DNA of 64,000 nucleotides from Acidimicrobiales bacterium (lineage in GTDB: Bacteria > Actinomycetota > Acidimicrobiia > Acidimicrobiales > VFJN01): the NCBI GenBank assembly GCA_035697145.1, contig DASSDL010000224.1:4484-68483 (forward strand), in the 5' to 3' direction. The notes below the pieces were generated by a model. The model saw nothing but the letters and a program-made list of their open reading frames with translations. It ran no database searches and had not been told where the DNA came from. Shown piece after piece: positions 6,458 to 64,000 of the stretch (position 1 is its first letter; every line of letters begins with the position of its first letter). The translations under genes and the position numbers were made by a program.

Positions 6458-6510
6458 GACGCCCCGACGCGGAACCGGGCCGCCGCCACCCGGCGGTCGG
6501 CTTGGTTGGG

Positions 6511-6583
6511 TGGAGCCGACGCGGATCGAACGCGCTACCCCTTCCATGCCATGGAAGTGCTCTACCAACTGAGCTACGGCCCC
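6511..6583 (-). tRNA. tRNA-Ala (anticodon GGC)
   Basis: Reverse strand GGGGCCGTAGCTCAGTTGGTAGAGCACTTCCATGGCATGGAAGGGGTAGCGCGTTCGATCCGCGTCGGCTCCA. It has a 7-bp acceptor with G3:U70, anticodon loop AUGGCAU, and T-loop TTCGATC. CCA is not encoded (followed by CCC). Confidence 0.9.
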
Positions 6584-6714
6584 GTTTGGGAGGAGTCAGC
6601 GTACCGTCGTGCAGGCGTGCGTGTCACCCGCCGGCACCACGTGTCTCCCGCTCTTGGCGCCTTCGGCGCCGGGCCGCTCGGGCCACGGCCTCGCCTATCG
6701 GGTCGGCCTCTGGG

Positions 6715-37713: not shown

Positions 37714-39050
37714 TGGCCACCGACCGCTACGTCGTCCTTGGACTCGCCCGGGCGCGCGCGGCGTGGTTCGGGCAGGTGGCGCGCTGGGCGACCGCCGCGG
37801 CACTGCCGGTCGATTTCGTCAAGACGGTGTCGGGCGAGGAGGTGCGGGCCCGCCTGCGCTCGGGCCGCCCGTTCTCGGCGCTGCTGGTCGACGGGGGACT
37901 GGCGGCGCTCGACCGTGACCTGATCGACCTCGCTGGCCGCCACGGTTGCGCGGTCATTGCGGTCGACGACGGGCGGTCGGCCCGGTCGTGGCGCGACCTC
38001 GGCGTGGCGGCGGTGCTTCCCGCCGACGTCGAACGGGGAGTGTTGCTGGACGCCCTCCGCGCGGTGGCGCAACCCATCGCCCGCCGCGACGACTCGGCGG
38101 ACCTTCCCGACCCGGTGGACCCGGCGCCCGCACGCTGGCGGGGTCGGTCGGTGGCCGTGACCGGCTCGGGTGGCGTTGGTCGCTCGACGCTGGCGATGGC
38201 CATTGCCGCGGGGTTGGCGGCCGATCCTCGGGATGCCGGCTTGGTGCTTCTCGCCGACCTGGCGCTCCACGCGCAACAGGCACTGCTGCACGACGCCGGC
38301 GACGTCTTGCCCGGCGTCGCGGAGCTGGCCGATGCTTGCCGGGGCACGGCGCTCGACTCCGCCGAGGTGCGGAGGCTCTGCTTCTCGGTGCCGACCCGCG
38401 GCTACGACCTGCTGCTGGGGCTGCGACGCCACCGGGACTGGACGGCACTGCGGCCCCGGGCCGTGGCGGTCGCCCTCGACGGTGTGCGGCGCGCCTACCG
38501 GGTCGTGGTGAGCGACGTCGACCCTGACGTCGAGGGCGAGGCAGAGTGCGGATCGCTCGACGTAGAGGACCGGAACCTGCTGGCCCGTACGGCCCTCCGG
38601 AACGCCGAGGTAGTCCTGGTGGTTGGCCACCCGGGAATGGCGGCCGTCCATGCGCAGCTGCGGGTCGTGCGCGACCTCGTCGAATTCGGCGTCGCCGGCG
38701 CCCGGATCGTGCCCGTCGTCAACCGGGCGCCCCGCGGCCCGCGGCAGAGAGCCGAGCTCGCGGCCACGCTCGCGGGCACGTTGCTGGCGGCCGCGTGTCC
38801 CGGCGTCACCCTGGCCTCGACCCCGATCTTCGTCCCCGAGCGACGCCGGCTCGACGACCTGGTCAGGGACGGCGCACCCCTGCCGCCACAGATCGTCCGC
38901 CCGGTCACAGGAGCGGTCCGGGCGTTGCTCGACCGAACGCCCGAGCTACCGGCGCCGCCCCGGCCGCCCGAACCCGTGGTGGTGGCGCCCGGATCCCTGG
39001 GTAGCTGGGCCGCCGACGATGGCGAGCCCGACGAGAAGGCTGGGTCGTGA
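37713..39050 (+). CDS. tadZ: TadZ/CpaE (Ssd-like) ParA/MinD-family pilus localisation protein, degenerate P-loop
   Basis: ATG 37713 shares one nt with the cpaB stop. Receiver-like N-domain, then VAVTGSGGVGRSTLAMA in place of the deviant Walker A KGGxGK[ST]. Confidence 0.75.
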   Translation: MATDRYVVLGLARARAAWFGQVARWATAAALPVDFVKTVSGEEVRARLRSGRPFSALLVDGGLAALDRDLIDLAGRHGCAVIAVDDGRSARSWRDLGVAAVLPADVERGVLLDALRAVAQPIARRDDSADLPDPVDPAPARWRGRSVAVTGSGGVGRSTLAMAIAAGLAADPRDAGLVLLADLALHAQQALLHDAGDVLPGVAELADACRGTALDSAEVRRLCFSVPTRGYDLLLGLRRHRDWTALRPRAVAVALDGVRRAYRVVVSDVDPDVEGEAECGSLDVEDRNLLARTALRNAEVVLVVGHPGMAAVHAQLRVVRDLVEFGVAGARIVPVVNRAPRGPRQRAELAATLAGTLLAAACPGVTLASTPIFVPERRRLDDLVRDGAPLPPQIVRPVTGAVRALLDRTPELPAPPRPPEPVVVAPGSLGSWAADDGEPDEKAGS

Positions 39051-40408
39051 CCCCGTCCACGTGGCGGCCCGAACGCCTCGCCGGCGCCACGCCGTCACCG
39101 CTGGTCGAGATCGAGCGCCTCGTCCAGGAGCGGGCCAAGGACGTATCGCTGGAGATGTCGTCCCCGGGGGGAGAAGCCAAGCTCAGGGCGCTCATCGCGG
39201 AGGAGGTGGCGCGCTGGGGCGACGACCACCGACGCGGGCGGCGGCCGTTTGCACTCGCCGATCCCGATCAGGTCGTCGAGCGCGCCTTCCGCAACCTGGC
39301 GCGCTACGGCCCACTCACCCCGCTGCTCGACGACGACGACGTGTGGGAGATCATGGTGAACGATCCCCAGACGGTGTTCGTGCGCCGCCATCGTGGCCAG
39401 TCGGGGTACCACGACGAGGTCTTCCACGACGACGACCACGTGCTGCGGACGCTGACCAAGCTGCTCGACGACGCGTCCAGCGCCCACCGCAAGCTCGATC
39501 CGGCCGACGGCCTCCAGGACGCGCAGCTCGACGACGGCGCGCGGGTCCACATCGTCCACGGGGACGTCGCGCGCGGCGGGCATGTGCTCGTGAACATCCG
39601 GAAGTTCACGGGCATCCCGTTCGCCTCGCTCGACGAGCTGGTCGGGCGGGGCATGCTCACGGCACGGGTGGCGGCGTTCCTACGGGCCTGTGTGCAGGCG
39701 CGGCTCTCGATCGTGTTCGCCGGCCATCCCGGCGCCGGCAAGACGACGCTGCTGTCGTGCACCGCGGCCGAGCTCGACCCGGCGCTGCGGGTGGTGGTGG
39801 CCGAGGAGGTGTTCGAGGCCGACATTCCGCTGCCCAACGTCGCCCACATGCAGACCCGCGCGGCCCGCTCGGACCGCGAGCCGGTCGACCTGCGGCGGTT
39901 GGTGGCGGGATTCCTGCGCATGGCACCCGACGTGGCCATCGTTGGCGAGGTGCGGGACCGCGAGGCGCTGCCCCTGCTCCTGACGCTGTCGTCGGGGGTC
40001 ACCGGGTTCACGACGATCCACGCCGGGTCGGCGCGCCAGGCGCTGACCCGGTTGCGGTTCGTGTGCCAGCTCGCCGACGCGCCAGGCGGGCTGCCGCTGG
40101 CGGCGCTCAACACGCTGGTGAGCGAGAGCATCGACGTGGTCGTGCACTGCACCCGCACGGCCGGCGGGCCGCGGGTGACCGAGCTCGTCATGGTCGAGGA
40201 CCTGCAGGGCGGGCTCGACGCCACGCAGTTCACGGTCACCGAGGTGTTCCGGCGGCCCGGGCCCGACCAGGCGCTGGCGTGGACCGGCAACCTGCCCGTC
40301 CGGGCCGCTCGAGCGTTGGCTGACGCCGGTCATGATGTCCGGCGGCTGCTGGACGATCGTTCCGGCGCCGGTGTCGAGCGCCTCGAGGTTCGGGGGGCGA
40401 TCGTATGA
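39047..40408 (+). CDS. tadA: Tad secretion ATPase CpaF/TadA
   Basis: GTGA overlap with tadZ. FAGHPGAGKTTLL (Walker A), RMAPDVAIVGEVRDREA, TGFTTIHAGSA. Confidence 0.95.
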   Translation: MTPSTWRPERLAGATPSPLVEIERLVQERAKDVSLEMSSPGGEAKLRALIAEEVARWGDDHRRGRRPFALADPDQVVERAFRNLARYGPLTPLLDDDDVWEIMVNDPQTVFVRRHRGQSGYHDEVFHDDDHVLRTLTKLLDDASSAHRKLDPADGLQDAQLDDGARVHIVHGDVARGGHVLVNIRKFTGIPFASLDELVGRGMLTARVAAFLRACVQARLSIVFAGHPGAGKTTLLSCTAAELDPALRVVVAEEVFEADIPLPNVAHMQTRAARSDREPVDLRRLVAGFLRMAPDVAIVGEVRDREALPLLLTLSSGVTGFTTIHAGSARQALTRLRFVCQLADAPGGLPLAALNTLVSESIDVVVHCTRTAGGPRVTELVMVEDLQGGLDATQFTVTEVFRRPGPDQALAWTGNLPVRAARALADAGHDVRRLLDDRSGAGVERLEVRGAIV

Positions 40409-40554
40409 GCGAGCGTCCGTCGAGGGTGACGGGGAAGCACGGTGAGAGCGAGCCGAGGGCCCGAGCGGCCCGCCGCCGTAGGCGGCAAGAGCGGGAGTCG
40501 ACGCGTCGGAGCCCGAGCGGCCCGCTGCGAAGCAGCAAGAGCGGGAAGCGATGA
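40405..40554 (+). repeat. intercistronic ATGA-to-ATGA mini-ORF repeat, copy A (49 codons, internally duplicated)
   Basis: The ATG overlaps the tadA TGA and the TGA overlaps the tadB ATG. Its 5' 14 nt and its 3' 24 nt (plus the terminal ATGA) are identical to the reverse-strand copy at 63905-63985. Confidence 0.8.
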
Positions 40555-41435
40555 CCGGGCTCGTGGTGGCGCTCTGTGCTGCCGTCGGGACCTACTACCT
40601 GTACACGGCGCTGGTGCTCGGCTGGCGGGGACTGCGCCCGGGTCCGCCGGTGGCGCGGCCGGCCCCGAGTCGGCGCGGCGCGTCGGACTGGCTCGCGCAG
40701 GCGGGCGTGGGTGACGTCAGCGTGCGGCAGTTCGTGCTTGTCACCGCGGCGCTGATGGCGTTGGGGGCCCTCGGCGGACTGGCCCTGTTCGGCGCGGCCC
40801 TTCCGGCGTTGGTCCTGGCCCTGTGCGTCGGGGCCGCTCCGTTCGCGTCCTACCGGGTGCGCCGCCAGCAGCTGCGGGCCGCCGCCCAGGAGGCCTGGCC
40901 GCGACTGATCGAGGAGATCCGCATCCGCACCTCGGGCCTGGGCCGGTCGGTGCCCCAGGCCCTGTTCGAGGCGGGTGAACGGGCGCCCGCCAGCCTCCGT
41001 CCGGCGTTCGCAGCGGCGCAGCGGGAATGGGTGCTCTCGACGGACTTCGAGCGCACGGTGGCGGTTCTGAAGGACGGGCTGGCGGATCCCACCGCGGACG
41101 CCGCCTGCGAGACCCTGCTGGTGGCGCACGAGGTGGGCGGCAGCGACCTCGACCGGCGGCTGGAGGCGCTGATCGAGGACCGCGTGATCGACGTCCAGGG
41201 CCGCAAGGACGCGCGTTCGAAGCAGGCCGGCGTGCGCTTCGCACGACGGTTCGTGCTCCTCGTCCCGTTGGGCATGGCGCTGGTGGGCATGTCGGTTGGC
41301 AACGGGCGGGCGGCCTACGCCACACCGTGGGGCCAGACGATGGTCGTCATCGGGATCACCTCGGTGGTGGCGTGCTGGGTGTGGGCGGGGCGGCTGCTCA
41401 GGCTGCCCGAAGAGCAGCGGGTCTTCTTCGAGTAG
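40551..41435 (+). CDS. tadB: Tad platform protein TadB (T2SS F family)
   Basis: 294 aa. N-terminal TM, cytoplasmic helical domain, C-terminal TM pair. Position directly after tadA. Confidence 0.85.
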   Translation: MTGLVVALCAAVGTYYLYTALVLGWRGLRPGPPVARPAPSRRGASDWLAQAGVGDVSVRQFVLVTAALMALGALGGLALFGAALPALVLALCVGAAPFASYRVRRQQLRAAAQEAWPRLIEEIRIRTSGLGRSVPQALFEAGERAPASLRPAFAAAQREWVLSTDFERTVAVLKDGLADPTADAACETLLVAHEVGGSDLDRRLEALIEDRVIDVQGRKDARSKQAGVRFARRFVLLVPLGMALVGMSVGNGRAAYATPWGQTMVVIGITSVVACWVWAGRLLRLPEEQRVFFE

Positions 41436-62715: not shown

Positions 62716-63123
62716 TCAGTCGCTCTCGGGCCGCCACGCCCGGGAGCGCTTGCGTTCGGCGGCGCGGCGCTTGGCCTCGAGCCGGGCCTCACGTGCGGCG
62801 CGCGACGGGCGGGTGGGACGGCGGGGGGCAACGACCGTCGCCGCATCGTCGAGGGTGGCGGCGAGCCGGCCCCGGGCGATTGTCCGGTTGCGCCACTGCG
62901 AACGCGATTCGTCGGCGCGCACGCGCACGACCGGACCCATGCGCTCGCGCACTCGGTCGGCGCCGGGCCCGTCGAGCGCCGTCAGGTCGGCCACGACCTC
63001 CACCGCGGACGCGGTGACGTTGCGGTGCTGGCCGCCGGGCCCCGACCCGCGCGCGAACCGCTCGTCGAGCGCGGCCGCCGGGAGGCGCAGCCCGCGCCGC
63101 GTCACGAGGTCGCCGTCACTCAT
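62716..63123 (-). CDS. arfB: alternative ribosome-rescue factor ArfB (peptidyl-tRNA hydrolase, GGQ)
   Basis: 135 aa. RGSGPGGQHRNVTASAVE (GGQ motif) and a basic tail PRRPTRPSRAAREARLEAKRRAAERKRSR. ATGA overlap with the permease stop. Confidence 0.85.
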   Translation of the reverse strand: MSDGDLVTRRGLRLPAAALDERFARGSGPGGQHRNVTASAVEVVADLTALDGPGADRVRERMGPVVRVRADESRSQWRNRTIARGRLAATLDDAATVVAPRRPTRPSRAAREARLEAKRRAAERKRSRAWRPESD

Positions 63124-63908
63124 GGCAGGAGGAGCGCGCCGAGGCGGCGGCCGGCGACACGGATCCCGACCCCGCCCACGGCCGCCAGGTAGGCGGCGTT
63201 CAGCAGCAAGGTGGGCGAGAGATCGCCGAGGATGAGCGCCCGCTCCAGGGCGACCCCCTGGTAGAGGGGACTGATCCGGACCACCCATTCGAGGGCCGCC
63301 GGGTACTGGCTCAGGGGGAAGAACGTGGCCGAGAACAAGAACAGCGGGACGATCGCGAGCTGCACGTAGTCGAAGTCCACGAACGAGCGCATGTAGGTGG
63401 TCAAGCCCATCCCGGCACCGGCGAAGCCGAAGCCGATGAGCAGGGCGGCCGGCAGTGCCAGCACGGCCCAGCCCGACGGCGTGAGGTCCATCGCCCACAT
63501 GGTCACCAGGAACACGCTGGCATAGAGCGTGGCTCGCAGCAGTGCCCACGTGACCTCGCCCCGCACCACGTCCTGCACGCCGAGCGGAGTGGCGAGCATC
63601 CCGTCGAACGTCCTGGCGTACTTGAACTTGAAGAAGAAGTTGAACGTCGTGTCGAACACCGTGCCGTTCATGGCCGAGGTCGCCAGCAGGGCGGGCGCGA
63701 CGAACACGTCGTAGGGGATCGGGCGGCCGCCGGGCCCCGGCAGGTCGCCCACCAGCTCGCCGACCCCGATGCCGATGGAGAACAGGTAGAAGACCGGTTC
63801 GAAGAAGCCGCTGAGGAAGACGGGCCACATCCGTAGGTAGGAACGGGTGTTGCGCTCGACGATCCGCAGGGCCCGCCGCGTGCCGAGCATCGCCACTGCG
63901 GTGCTCAT
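63120..63908 (-). CDS. ABC-2 type transporter permease
   Basis: MSTAVAMLGTRRALRIVERNTRSYLRMWPVFLSGFFEPVFYLFSIGIG... Six hydrophobic segments. ATG 63908 forms ATGA with the stop of the repeat mini-ORF. Confidence 0.8.
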   Translation of the reverse strand: MSTAVAMLGTRRALRIVERNTRSYLRMWPVFLSGFFEPVFYLFSIGIGVGELVGDLPGPGGRPIPYDVFVAPALLATSAMNGTVFDTTFNFFFKFKYARTFDGMLATPLGVQDVVRGEVTWALLRATLYASVFLVTMWAMDLTPSGWAVLALPAALLIGFGFAGAGMGLTTYMRSFVDFDYVQLAIVPLFLFSATFFPLSQYPAALEWVVRISPLYQGVALERALILGDLSPTLLLNAAYLAAVGGVGIRVAGRRLGALLLP

Positions 63909-63985
63909 TGCTTCCCGCTCTTGCTGCTTCGCACCGGGCTGCTCGGGCCACACTCGCTCTCTCGCCCTACGGGACGCTCGCTCAT
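63905..63985 (-). repeat. intercistronic ATGA-to-ATGA mini-ORF repeat, copy B (26 codons)
   Basis: Reverse strand ATGAGCGAGCGTCCCGTAGGGCGAGAGAGCGAGTGTGGCCCGAGCAGCCCGGTGCGAAGCAGCAAGAGCGGGAAGCAATGA encodes MSERPVGRESECGPSSPVRSSKSGKQ. It shares both ends with copy A. Confidence 0.8.
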
Positions 63986-64000
63986 GCCGCGAGCCTCCGT
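63982..64000 (-). CDS. 3' end of an upstream cistron (expected ABC ATP-binding subunit), partial
   Basis: Reverse frame ..RRLAA-TGA ends inside ATGA 63985..63982, the same geometry as tadA/copy A. Only 19 nt are visible. Alternatively the gene reads through the repeat in the other frame. Confidence 0.3.

Follow-up and report, generated by a model that had tools for sequence, protein, structure and literature searches.

A probable modular insertion element at start codons of Acidimicrobiales that behaves like mycobacterial interspersed repetitive units

Results

Repeats at the tadA-tadB and permease-permease junctions

The window, by which we mean the whole 64,000-nt stretch of DNA that was analysed, comes from an uncultured soil actinobacterium of the order Acidimicrobiales and has a G+C content of 71.7%. 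Its tadA and tadB genes are separated by a repeat of the kind termed here W-type (copy A), laid out as follows:

39047..40408, + strand: tadA/cpaF-type secretion ATPase (Pfam PF00437 T2SSE, E = 1.6e-27)
40405..40554, + strand: copy A with both ATGA junctions counted; W-type, 146 nt, 49-codon mini-ORF
40405..40415, + strand: head of copy A, ATGAGCGAGCG, uniting the stop of tadA and the start of the mini-ORF with the family's conserved 5' end
40416..40452, + strand: long-head module of copy A, TCCGTCGAGGGTGACGGGGAAGCACGGT, hairpin CCGTC/GACGG, then GAGAGCGAG (head variants were enumerated and folded)
40453..40510, + strand: internal unit of copy A, core GCCCGAGCGGCCCG, hairpin GCCGCC-GTA-GGCGGC (40472-40486), CAAGAGCGGGA, spacer GTCGACGCGTCGGA
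40511..40550, + strand: terminal unit of copy A, core GCCCGAGCGGCCCG, hairpin GCTGC-GAA-GCAGC (40524-40536), tail CAAGAGCGGGAAGCG
40551..41435, + strand: tadB (294 aa)

The initial annotation had placed the tadA stop TGA (40406-40408) within an ATGA at 40405-40408 and the tadB ATG within a second ATGA at 40551-40554, and the sequence bore out both junctions. The same 453-aa tadA gene and an identical 294-aa TadB protein were called in two other metagenome contigs (L001 and L002). Orthologues of tadB number in the hundreds at 294 aa (JGI name, tight adherence protein B), and the TadB of the window was 92% identical to that of an Acidimicrobiales metagenome-assembled genome (MAG). The uninterrupted 49-codon ORF described between the two genes was confirmed: its 150 nt translate as MSERPSRVTGKHGESEPRARAARRRRRQERESTRRSPSGPLRSSKSGKR followed by a stop, with the tail ATGA supplying both the TGA that ends the mini-ORF and the ATG that starts tadB. 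Openness of this ORF was dropped as evidence for copy A, as 61% of random 49-codon stretches of the window were also open and the frame is not significant alone.

Copy A is made up of a long head, one 54-nt internal unit (a multiple of 3) and a terminal unit, which gives its size class (146 = 77 + 15 + 54). An imperfect internal duplication had been proposed, and nhmmer recovered it as two core units, one matched at 40449-40499 in the internal unit (E = 1.5e-8) and the other at 40506-40549 in the terminal unit, with a 15-nt and a 12-nt block in common and in register. Tandem Repeats Finder did not call this 52-54-nt duplication in copy A, the units being too diverged, and nhmmer and blastn alone detected them. 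The hairpin of the internal unit was present in both the RNA fold and the DNA fold.

A second, shorter copy (copy B) lies at the far end of the window:

63120..63908, - strand: ABC-2 transporter permease, 262 aa (orthologues with PF01061, 261-262 aa; called in contigs L249-L254)
63905..63985, - strand: copy B with both ATGA junctions counted; W-type, 77 nt, 26-codon mini-ORF MSERPVGRESECGPSSPVRSSKSGKQ
63982..64000, - strand: 3' end of the ABC-2 permease gene lying upstream, truncated at the edge of the window; stop TGA (63982-63984) within the head ATGA of copy B

Copy B is a single unit with a short head (hairpin CCC-GTA-GGG, 63965-63973), the hairpin G(G)TGC-GAA-GCA(G)C (63923-63935, one mismatch) and the tail CAAGAGCGGGAAGCA, which recreates the ATG of the 262-aa permease; GGAGG lies 9-13 nt upstream of its head ATG. 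The reported recurrence of both ends of copy A on the opposite strand was exact, the 14-nt head ATGAGCGAGCGTCC at 63972-63985(-) and the 24-nt tail TGCGAAGCAGCAAGAGCGGGAAGC at 63910-63933(-), with 0 matches to the tail in 100 shuffles. The tail match extended to 44 nt at 93% identity to the terminal unit of copy A (E = 5e-13), and the ATGA-to-ATGA spacings given earlier, 146 nt for copy A and 77 nt for copy B, were correct. The window stops 15 nt upstream of copy B; that this copy bridges two cistrons was borne out via two sister contigs (L249 and L250), in which the upstream gene is a 273-aa PF01061 permease ending at the head.

Filled and empty sites in relatives

Comparison of orthologous junctions found both sites empty in near relatives. 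The tadA-tadB junction was filled by 146 nt in the window, L001 and L002, and was a bare 4-nt ATGA/GTGA overlap in L241, L242 (92% TadB identity), L247 and L248; L241 belongs to a MAG that carries W-type copies at other places (L003, L103). At the same junction, L243, an error-prone contig, held a W-type element with 4 units, and L244-L246 held a different element (X-type) with the same head as copy A. The X-type element was also seen in L248. The site of copy B was empty, with a TTGA or GTGA overlap, in L251, L252 and L253, and held a 92-nt long-head version in L249 and L250 compared to 77 nt in the window. Recombination, instead of repeated insertion, could also explain why a single site holds different variants. 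Variation in unit number, which had been anticipated, was seen as module differences in 9 of 14 orthologous locus groups, and the short head (CCC-GNA-GGG) and the long head (+15 nt) alternated at orthologous loci. The empty sites in relatives indicate that copies A and B are insertions.

These sites also bear on whether the mini-ORF might instead be a conserved small protein gene of the tad locus or the ABC operon, with no repeat involved. In favour of this, the ORF is uninterrupted, begins with a start codon and is coupled perfectly at both ends, and a few such ORFs are called hypothetical proteins in public annotations; however, it is wholly absent from the closest relatives at both loci, the same sequence occurs ahead of unrelated genes, variation follows the hairpin loops rather than codon position 3, and openness at this length has a 61% chance. 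The mini-ORF had no Pfam match, and a peptide-profile search of a 5.8-billion-protein set returned 18 matches only, too few to serve for a census. We regard this reading as extremely improbable, the empty orthologous sites having effectively ruled it out.

Family census and boundary rules

The core pattern matched at least 118 stretches, which came almost entirely from Acidimicrobiia MAGs, and a head pattern scan of metagenomes returned at least 120. Further copies were thus found well beyond the window, 116 among the matches listed, in soil metagenomes and Acidimicrobiales MAGs; among these matches, nearly all named host records were Acidimicrobiia or Acidimicrobiales MAGs. The pattern that yielded the 116 copies contained neither a start nor a stop codon. 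Among the matches listed, NTGA nonetheless preceded the searched head motif in 115 of 116 copies, and the head began with a start codon in 106 (ATG 80, GTG 17, TTG 9). The W-type plan deduced from these copies would consist of a head NTG-AGCGAGCG, a C-GNA-G hairpin module in its short or its long form, between 0 and 3 internal units, and a terminal unit composed of GCCCGAGCGGCCCG, a C-GNA-G hairpin and CAAGAGCGGGAAGCA. Size classes were 75/77, 90/92, 114/116, 129/131 and 146 nt, with 77 nt the commonest (26 copies among the matches listed), and therefore reflect module increments of 15, 39 and 54 nt. Full copies in tandem were found at four loci (L130, L172, L230 and L154).

Genes were assigned to copies by local coding-phase tests. 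The frame of the element connected to the downstream gene in 100 of 107 listed copies, by overlapping it at -4 (60 copies) or at -1 (12 copies) or by fusion to it (28 copies), and 90 of the 100 frame-connected copies among the matches listed passed a GC3 coding-phase test. Where the base at +4 was A, the stop was the NTGA overlap in 45 of 46 listed copies; where it was not A, the tail brought its own stop in 14 of 14. The initial annotation had held that a length of 3n+2 between ATGA or GTGA junctions is the only class permitted, and of this the conserved boundaries stood and the exclusivity did not: among 109 listed copies the length modulo 3 was 2 in 70, 0 in 33 and 1 in 6, such that the 33 copies of length 3n are in-frame N-terminal fusions and 3n+1 alone is depleted. 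The p-values for this length distribution (binomial p = 3e-12) and for the dependence of the stop on the +4 base (Fisher p = 9e-13) overstate independence because the copies are related by descent. Copies that broke the rules (CTG heads, 3n+1 lengths) made up ~7%, some of them artefacts of boundary detection or of error-prone contigs. These results show, at the level of sequence, that the reading frame of the element is constrained and that its boundary rules hold in more than 100 copies.

Placement between cistrons, proposed for the repeat in general, was true of both window copies, but what the family as a whole has in common is a position on the downstream gene's start codon. The stop of an upstream gene lay in the head TGA in ~27% of listed copies by a crude upstream-coding classifier that scored copy A itself as 'neither'. 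About 42% of listed copies sat at leaderless starts, directly downstream of a TANNNT box, which was found at -14 to -11 in 45 of 107 listed copies relative to 0.4% of control ATG/GTG triplets. The flanking ATGA pair had been taken for a duplicated target site. A strict 4-nt duplication was rejected, as head and tail start codons differed in at least 12 copies and +4 was not always A; the head can open with A, G, T or C, and the recreated start is nearly always ATG. Genes beginning ATGG or ATGC carry the W-type element too. Among the matches listed, downstream genes opened with NTGAGCG five times more often than controls (14/57 vs 7/146), an excess that is equally compatible with microhomology or recombination and with a target preference.

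N-terminal tags and annotation

In-frame tags were found on a class-I W/Y tRNA synthetase, 6PGD, IlvD, RNase J, urocanase, an Era-like GTPase and other proteins. Of 22 long in-frame fusions examined, several lacked an alternative in-frame start, and Pfam domains started directly after the tag. Gene callers treat the element unevenly: mini-ORFs are mostly overlooked (18 database proteins), some callers lengthen the permease into the element at filled copy-B-type sites (277 aa vs 262), and at the empty site in L251 the permease call begins 6 codons downstream of the TTGA overlap.

Hairpins, folding and regulatory alternatives

Across the family, 49 variants of hairpin 3 were counted, with loops of the GNA form and numerous distinct stems that paired in full (95% of cells paired, double changes in 3 of 5 pairs), and its covariation score was reached by 0 of 500 shuffles; the corresponding hairpin in the terminal unit of copy A covaries family-wide. 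The N of the loop falls on codon position 2, and the four bases occupy it in 26, 17, 15 and 13 copies. This pattern indicates that conservation resides in the covarying C-GNA-G hairpins rather than in the peptide. Overall folding energy was no better than that of shuffled sequence, either as RNA or as DNA (z between -0.34 and 0), and we dropped an argument from unusually stable structure because of these z-scores of ~0. Rfam gave 0 matches at the gathering threshold on the window, and a search at E ≤ 1 of seven loci with typical copies returned nothing relevant.

Covarying hairpins that always lie on the sense strand of the gene might be expected if the repeat were a structured RNA with a cis-regulatory role, or a regulatory leader peptide (uORF), which many genes had recruited for co-regulation and which is no neutral insertion. 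With its four GAGCG motifs, each unit might offer binding sites to a protein or an sRNA, the tail GGGGAGCA-ATG resembles a Shine-Dalgarno sequence, and dozens of otherwise unrelated mRNAs, leaderless in many cases, share the repeat as a 5' sequence. Yet the host genes are unrelated (pilus assembly, ABC permease, tRNA synthetase, IlvD, RNase J, urocanase), presence and module number differ between near-identical strains, the peptide is free to vary at loop positions, and neither Rfam nor the fold z-scores lend support. Also, S- and L-type relatives occur in both orientations (58 same vs 28 opposite). We therefore consider recruitment for co-regulation improbable.

Copy C and the S- and L-type relatives

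A relative of the W-type element was found elsewhere in the window:

6641..6711, - strand: copy C, S-type relative, between leuS and tRNA-Ala(GGC) (blastn 40 nt at 92.5%; nhmmer E = 1.8e-10)

Copy C lies 3 nt past the stop of leuS, which was identified by Pfam matches, and upstream of tRNA-Ala(GGC). It is non-coding and has no ATGA bounds, and consists of AGAGG, a degenerate hairpin 1 (GGCCGACCC-GATA-GGCGAGGCC), the core GTGGCCCGAGCGGCCCG, the hairpin GGCGCC-GAA-GGCGCC and CAAGAGCGGGAGACAC. S- and L-type repeats share with W-type the core GGCCCGAGCGGCCCG, a C-GNA-G hairpin and CAAGAGCGGGAAnC, occur in tandem arrays (L012, L094) and come from the same host class (Acidimicrobiia, sponge-associated and soil). 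They begin with AGAGG and a GNNA-capped hairpin, whereas W-type elements begin with NTGAGCGAGCG; unlike W-type, they are mostly simply intergenic and in either orientation to neighbouring genes, and the long form has inverted termini. Targeting of gene boundaries by S- and L-type copies was considered and rejected, and we kept the gene-boundary rule to W-type, because only ~20% of them adjoin an upstream stop. We found no published description of S- or L-type repeats.

Comparison with MIRUs

Mycobacterial interspersed repetitive units (MIRUs) insert at start codons with a -4 overlap and carry a small ORF through the element (Supply et al. 1997; PMC12548453). Their units measure ~46-101 bp with 77- and 53-bp classes, occur in direct tandem and vary in number among strains (PMC12548453, PMC4213456, PMC6286618); the class-I MIRUs of senX3-regX3 are 77 nt long (PMC4213456). 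The W-type element likewise has short units with a basic size of 77 nt, forms direct arrays whose unit number differs between strains, is dispersed and gene-oriented at start codons and in operons, and is traversed by a small ORF with overlaps of -4 spacing at both the upstream stop and the downstream start. The suggestion of MIRU-like behaviour in a non-mycobacterial host is thus supported, the repeat being dispersed, variably modular and equipped with a small ORF whose ends run into the neighbouring stop and start codons. In contrast to MIRUs, its host is Acidimicrobiia and not Mycobacterium, its head, internal and tail modules contain covarying C-GNA-G hairpins, a second, in-frame length class produces N-terminal protein tags, it is strongly linked with leaderless starts, and sister subfamilies (S- and L-type) located off start codons share its core.

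Literature searches for the complete consensus of MIRUs, and for exact strings taken from the new family, recovered two short MIRU motifs only, motif A TGACGAGGAGCGGCGCAGATGGCA and motif B GGCGCCGGTGACGATGCAGAGCGTAGCGA (PMC6286618). Local alignment scores of the W-type element to motifs A and B were equalled by 59 to 155 of 300 shuffles in a comparison that covered 53 nt of MIRU sequence; with the same 53 nt, S-type similarity was borderline (24 of 300 shuffles scored as well). This test of similarity is weak because of the small amount of MIRU sequence compared. If W-type elements were true, diverged MIRUs, repeats of this type would be ancient in Actinomycetota and not a mycobacterial invention. 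Such homology would account for the shared behaviour of start-codon insertion, -4 overlap and small ORF (PMC12548453) and for the 77-nt basic unit found in class-I MIRUs (PMC4213456), and the S-type hairpin GAGCG(C/T)AGCGA...AGAGCGG resembles the B-to-A junction of MIRUs, GAGCGTAGCGA-TGACGAGGAGCGG (PMC6286618). However, the W-type alignment was no better than that of shuffled motifs, the borderline S-type similarity looked better for one hand-picked variant only, and the host classes differ (Acidimicrobiia vs Actinomycetes), and we think common descent with MIRUs improbable. In its sequence the W-type element works like a MIRU, yet is not demonstrably a MIRU homologue. The earlier view that it fits no named family also held, with no matching Rfam family and no published description found; searches of the literature on Acidimicrobiia repeats or 'MIRU-like' elements returned nothing relevant.

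Discussion

We propose, with a probability of roughly 80%, that copies A and B are a non-autonomous, modular W-type insertion element of Acidimicrobiales that lands on start codons. Each copy would land on a gene's start codon and point the same way as that gene, such that the original initiation signals (overlap with an upstream stop, a Shine-Dalgarno sequence or a leaderless promoter) are retained and now initiate a mini-ORF through the element, and its 3' end would restore an ATG for the gene. Modules would all be multiples of 3 nt, with a tail of two lengths. A 13-nt tail hairpin would give a length of 3n+2, with the mini-ORF stopping either in the NTGA overlap or at a TAA, TAG or TGA of the tail that overlaps the ATG by one base; ribosomes may then terminate at the mini-ORF stop and restart on the gene (translational coupling). 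We infer both translation of the mini-ORF and ribosome re-initiation from this arrangement. An 11-nt tail hairpin would give a length of 3n and turn the element into an N-terminal tag of 25-43 residues. The two tail types could also represent separate subfamilies, each persisting in contexts of its own, and not be the outcome of adaptation after insertion. We propose that copies persist because insertion is nearly neutral for expression in either frame class; persisting copies would then change by module gain, loss or exchange.

Two bacterial repeat families offer partial parallels. BOX elements of the Firmicute Streptococcus pneumoniae consist of boxA, a variable number of boxB units and boxC, and resemble the W-type element in having a head, variable internal units and a tail, and in being intergenic, non-autonomous, stem-loop-forming and variable at orthologous loci; they differ in not being bound to start codons or to a reading frame, and show no sequence relation. 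Rickettsia palindromic elements are small palindromic repeats that lie in frame within coding genes and are tolerated as an extra peptide segment, as the W-type 3n class would be. However, they insert inside ORFs with no start-codon or coupling logic, whereas the W-type tag is always N-terminal and begins from the initiation signal of the gene itself, and again there is no sequence relation.

As a working guess, movement would occur in trans via single-stranded DNA hairpins, or by copy-to-copy recombination. In a specific form of the former, the repeat would spread as a hairpin-dependent single-stranded DNA unit (a REP/RAYT unit or IS200/IS605 miniature) that an HUH/Y1 transposase inserts in trans beside NTGA. 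REPs are imperfect palindromes with a GTAG head that occur past the 3' ends of genes, mainly in inverted pairs, with a REP-flanked RAYT transposase gene in the genome, and DNA loops of the d(GCGAAGC) type are exceptionally stable. Miniature elements derived from IS200/IS605 have subterminal hairpins at either end, neither TIR nor TSD, an insertion site 3' of a fixed tetra- or pentanucleotide, and a genomic TnpA(Y1) gene. REP/BIME repeats and IS200/IS605 miniatures share with W-type elements a short, hairpin-forming, strand-specific structure at high copy number, the lack of terminal inverted repeats and of clear target duplications, and a presumed trans-acting enzyme. Features of W-type copies that would suit such a unit are their strict orientation, subterminal C-GNA-G hairpins at both ends, an NTG(A) junction with one tetranucleotide at both the left flank and the right end, and a first head base that appears host-derived next to a constant right-end ATG. 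On the other hand, the GTAG conserved at the 5' end of classical REPs is missing, copies are single or in direct tandem at gene 5' ends, with no inverted doublets, and the NTGAGCG excess suits microhomology or recombination equally. When the 1,712 ORFs of loci L001-L248 (~2 Mb) were clustered, no recurrent transposase-like family that could be the mobilising enzyme, and no Y1, TnpA or RAYT-like gene, was found in these 248 loci; the 10 largest clusters, which were inspected, were ordinary metabolic or transporter families or tad genes that had recruited loci. Transposition by such an enzyme is possible and, on balance, doubtful.

Going beyond the insertion element proposed here, the family might be a start-codon-specific mobile system with its own targeting of NTG(A) at initiation sites, leaderless ones included, through which dozens of unrelated genes acquire the same structured 5' coding leader or the same N-terminal peptide tag. 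We judge this unlikely, though less so than recruitment for co-regulation or MIRU descent. If true, the tagged genes would include essential ones (tRNA synthetase, Era-like GTPase, RNase J, IlvD), the tag would be a ready handle for co-regulating translation or protein fate, and the family would amount to a natural experiment in termination-reinitiation on leaderless mRNAs.

As a second, sequence-unrelated family with MIRU logic in a distant actinobacterial class, W-type elements would mean that MIRUs are no lone case, and suggest a recurrent evolutionary solution in which repeats colonise gene-dense genomes by hijacking translational coupling. The copies, which number in the hundreds, are built of discrete modules, fall into two frame classes and come with many pairs of filled and empty sites; as comparative material they are richer than MIRUs, and could be used to address termination-reinitiation after leaderless initiation, the strength of selection on reading frame in 'non-coding' repeats, and how far essential enzymes tolerate repeat-encoded N-terminal tags. 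Polymorphic loci could also mark strains of uncultured Acidimicrobiales, as MIRU-VNTR does in tuberculosis.

Two copies of one element join adjacent genes

The initial annotation placed a mini-ORF between tadA and tadB, and both coordinates and gene calls agree that the tadA stop and the tadB start each lie inside an ATGA and are joined by a 49-codon ORF. The uninterrupted frame exists, but its openness alone carries no weight, because 61% of random stretches of window DNA (71.7% G+C) also hold an open 49-codon frame.

Features of the window (coordinates, strand, description)
39047-40408, +, tadA, T2SSE ATPase (PF00437, Pfam), stop TGA 40406-40408 within ATGA 40405-40408
40405-40554, +, copy A, mini-ORF of 49 codons (ORF reading), 150 nt joining both tadA/tadB junctions
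start 40551, +, tadB, 294 aa, starting within the second ATGA; identical product called on two other metagenome contigs, orthologues 294 aa
63905-63985, -, copy B, 81 nt, first 14 nt and last 24 nt plus ATGA the same as in copy A
6641-6711, -, copy C, S-type relative, 3 nt past the leuS stop and upstream of tRNA-Ala(GGC) 6509-6583 (-)

The ends of copy A do recur on the opposite strand in copy B, as had been proposed: the tail match reaches 44 nt at 93% identity (E = 5e-13), and the 24-mer common to both copies gave 0 chance matches in 100 shuffles. The reported ATGA-to-ATGA spacings of 146 nt (copy A) and 77 nt (copy B) were reproduced, and copy B bridges two cistrons, its upstream neighbour, truncated by the window edge, being a second ABC-2 permease gene. 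The internal duplication claimed for copy A was recovered by nhmmer as two core units; Tandem Repeats Finder, for which the units have diverged too far, left the duplication uncalled. Copy C shares the core and carries a GGCGCC-GAA-GGCGCC hairpin, compensatory relative to GCCGCC-GTA-GGCGGC in copy A; its head is AGAGG/hairpin-1 in place of NTGAGCGAGCG.

A large family in Acidimicrobiia

Bacteria and archaea at one genome per species were scanned with the core pattern CCGAGCNGCCCG, 9–15 nt, CAAGAGCGGG, which matched at least 118 stretches, nearly all of those listed being Acidimicrobiia MAGs. A few matches (L006, L035, L075, L105) come from MAGs whose labels read Acidobacteria, Kiloniellales or Bifidobacteriaceae; Acidimicrobiia contigs may have been mis-binned there, or the family may really have spread beyond the class. 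Most copies listed were of related types, here called S and L, and the window-type head was present in eight genome copies among the matches listed. A head pattern (GAGCGAGCGTCC, gap, GAGAGCGAG, gap, CCCGAGC), from which start and stop codons were left out on purpose, matched at least 120 metagenome stretches. Both scans combined gave at least 116 distinct copies resembling copies A and B, which we call W-type. Besides these further copies, the suggestion of a family lacking prior description agrees with the searchable literature, in which no description was found, and with Rfam, in which no family matched the element. The Rfam gathering-threshold scan of window 1-64000 returned zero matches, though ARAGORN finds tRNA-Ala(GGC); this silence even on a tRNA seems to be an artefact of the tool or its filtering, not biology.

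S- and L-type elements consist of AGAGG, a GNNA-capped hairpin or instead an insertion of ~40 nt, the core, a C-GNA-G hairpin and CAAGAGCGGGAAnC. Their module is ~65 nt, with a long form that has inverted termini (GAGCGGATAGGC ... GCCTATCCGC) and tandem arrays of up to 7 x 43 nt (L012). Examples in Acidimicrobiia MAGs (L003-L120) include L010:3250-3360, L018:4950-5090, L012:3314-3606 and L094:5380-5520, and many of the MAGs listed bear the names Ca. Poriferisodalis and Ca. Aldehydirespirator, both sponge-associated. In its majority form hairpin 3 is UGAGC-GNA-GCGAA, with tandem G-A pairs, and it covaries to UGAAC/GUGAA. Among the matches listed, 58 had the same orientation as the upstream gene and 28 the opposite.

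A further type, X, sits between stop/start overlaps (L244:1912-2004, L245, L246; L248:2880-3066); one copy occupies the tadA-tadB site, and a tandem pair lies between tadB and tadC. It has only the head (A/G)TGAGCGAGCG in common with W-type, its body reading ...AAGCGAGCGAATC(A/G)TGAGCACAGT..., and was absent from the window.

Filled and empty sites in relatives

TadB orthologues were collected with their contigs and the tadA-tadB junctions compared. Copies A and B are both insertions. In L241 and L242 (92% TadB identity), L247 (79%) and L248 (76%), tadA and tadB simply overlap by 4 nt, the overlap reading GTGA in L248 and ATGA in the others. The L241 MAG carries W-type copies elsewhere (L003, L103) and is therefore an element-bearing genome with an empty tadA-tadB site. 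The same 146-nt element as in the window occupies this junction in L001 and L002, a four-unit version occupies it in L243 (90%), and a different element with 89-nt spacing fills it in L244-L246 (87%), where only the head ATGAGCGAGCG is in common. The expectation that orthologous junctions would vary in both presence and unit number was therefore borne out at this site. At the copy B site, L249 and L250 (permease 99% identical) hold a 92-nt long-head element vs the 77-nt short-head element of the window; the site is an empty GTGA overlap in L252 and L253 (85%), an empty TTGA overlap in L251 (91%) and a 10-nt spacer in L254 (77%).

On the long-read-style contig L243 (1750-2004), the called tadA stops ~200 nt short of tadB, on the upstream side of the four-unit element; that element is 3n+1 in length. 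Indel errors of assembly probably account for this anomaly; it may also be a real frameshift.

Fourteen groups of copies with both flanks in common were present among the matches listed, and module content differed in 9 of them, in short vs long head, in 0, 1 or 3 internal units, and in unit types. Both window loci are examples of this polymorphism.

W-type elements are bounded by start codons and constrained in frame

Immediately ahead of the searched motif, 80 of the 116 listed copies have AT, 17 GT, 9 TT, 9 CT and 1 CC. The head was thus NTGA in 115/116 and a start codon in 106/116. At the tail, among the 107 listed copies with enough flank, 60 had an NTGA overlap with the downstream start, 12 a TAATG-type one-base overlap, 28 ran in frame into a long gene and 7 did something else. 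Of the 100 gene-joined copies listed, 90 have downstream sequence that passes a GC3 coding-phase test.

Lengths, taken between the head codon and the recreated start, were 3n+2 in 70 listed copies, 3n in 33 and 3n+1 in 6 (several of these six being detection errors or on an error-prone contig); 3n+2 is not the sole class allowed. Sizes fell into classes of 75/77, 90/92, 114/116, 129/131 and 146 nt. A long head contributes 15 nt, and the internal units, of two kinds, contribute 39 or 54 nt, each length being divisible by three; the 2-nt step within pairs reflects a tail hairpin of 11 nt (GGCC-GAA-GGCC) vs 13 nt (GCTGC-GAA-GCAGC). Where the gene of a listed 3n+2 copy had A at +4, the NTGA stop was used (45/46), and where it had another base, TAA, TAG or TGA occurred in the tail one codon earlier (14/14; Fisher p = 9e-13, which is optimistic because copies share ancestry). 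Even so, such a pattern is hard to explain other than by ribosomes reading the element and selection keeping termination at the start of the gene.

The head TGA is the stop of an upstream co-directional gene in ~27% of listed copies, including both window copies. A TANNNT box lies at -14 to -11 from the head codon in 45/107 listed copies vs 0.4% of control ATG/GTG triplets, a placement that we take, from mycobacterial transcription start maps, to be the leaderless actinobacterial arrangement with transcription from the A of ATG. Shine-Dalgarno sequences preceded a minority of W-type copies. Across these upstream contexts, the common denominator is the start codon, whatever the initiation mode. 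MIRUs (mycobacterial interspersed repetitive units) likewise 'insert themselves at start codons', coupled at -4 (PMC12548453).

In-frame copies as predicted protein tags

Twenty-two long in-frame fusions were examined, in which the tag is MSERPxGRESERGPSGPAEGQERGA or a longer modular version. Proteins preceded by the tag (Pfam) included a class-I W/Y tRNA synthetase, isochorismatase, IlvD, RNase J, urocanase, an Era-like GTPase, a ProA-like dehydrogenase, a nucleotidyl transferase, thiamin pyrophosphokinase and a 6-phosphogluconate dehydrogenase; in the last of these, the NAD-binding domain starts at residue 29. The gene ATG is still in frame at the junction in L195 and L238 and has drifted elsewhere, e.g. 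to ACG. Several fusions (L103, L164, L184) are without any alternative start, and there the tag appears obligatory.

Conserved hairpins

What is conserved in W-type is the hairpins rather than the peptide. The tail hairpin occurred in 49 sequence variants, all with C-G-closed GNA loops and with many different fully paired stems. In an equal-length subset, 95% of cells were paired, double changes were found at 3/5 pairs, one pair showed all four Watson-Crick combinations, and the covariation score was reached by 0/500 shuffles. The head hairpin, CCC-GNA-GGG, also exists as a compensatory CCG-GAA-CGG variant; its free N (A 26, C 17, G 15, T 13) is codon position 2, so the head-loop residue changes freely. 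G-T pairs are rare and run in both directions, which makes RNA and DNA hairpins indistinguishable, and the total folding energy of the element was unremarkable. In minimum-free-energy folds of copy B and the W-type consensus (RNA and DNA), the head GCGTCCCG pairs with the tail CGGGAAGC (7/8 complementary); this predicted pairing would form in place of the local CCC-GNA-GGG hairpin and would join the element ends.

Mobility

The flanking ATGA pair had been read as a duplicated target site; there is no strict target duplication, as a GTG or TTG head accompanies an ATG tail in 12 listed copies. W-type also has no terminal inverted repeats, and no recurrent transposase-like ORF family was found near elements at the loci examined. 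Element-bearing genes began with NTGAGCG in 14/57 cases (e.g. L120, L187, L218, L235) vs 7/146 control ATGA starts, a fivefold enrichment, and head-target similarity often extends past ATGA. This excess suggests a preferred target, integration by microhomology or leftover tandem copies. Movement may proceed by hairpin-dependent single-strand DNA mobilisation in trans, or by copy-to-copy recombination.

Relation to known families

BOX elements are similar in modularity, Rickettsia palindromic elements in in-frame tolerance, and REP or IS200-type elements in having hairpins without inverted termini, but those of their defining features that could be tested were not seen in W-type. When aligned to published MIRU motifs A and B (53 nt), W-type scored no better than shuffles and S-type was borderline (24/300 shuffles as good, stronger only for a hand-picked variant). 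S-type hairpin 3, GAGCG(C/T)AGCGA...AGAGCGG (L079:2541-2575, L110:2723-2758), resembles the MIRU motif B/A junction (GAGCGTAGCGA-TGACGAGGAGCGG), which may be a lead towards distant common ancestry and is not evidence for it.

Overall, the finding of the initial annotation is real and its interpretation, MIRU-like behaviour in a non-mycobacterial host, is supported with refinements. The family inserts at start codons, and has a frame-constrained modular design, covarying hairpins and polymorphic modules. It behaves as MIRUs do: unit size, variable tandem units and orientation agree, as do the location at start codons and the small ORF that overlaps stop and start. It differs from them in host (Acidimicrobiia) and shows no significant similarity to the published motifs. 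W-type has three features that MIRUs, to our knowledge, do not share: an additional, protein-tagging frame class, a strong association with leaderless starts, and sister subfamilies untied from start codons. The native initiation signal would drive translation of the element, and ribosomes would either terminate within or beside the recreated ATG and start anew on the gene, or continue straight into the protein; expression would be preserved and insertion would be nearly neutral.
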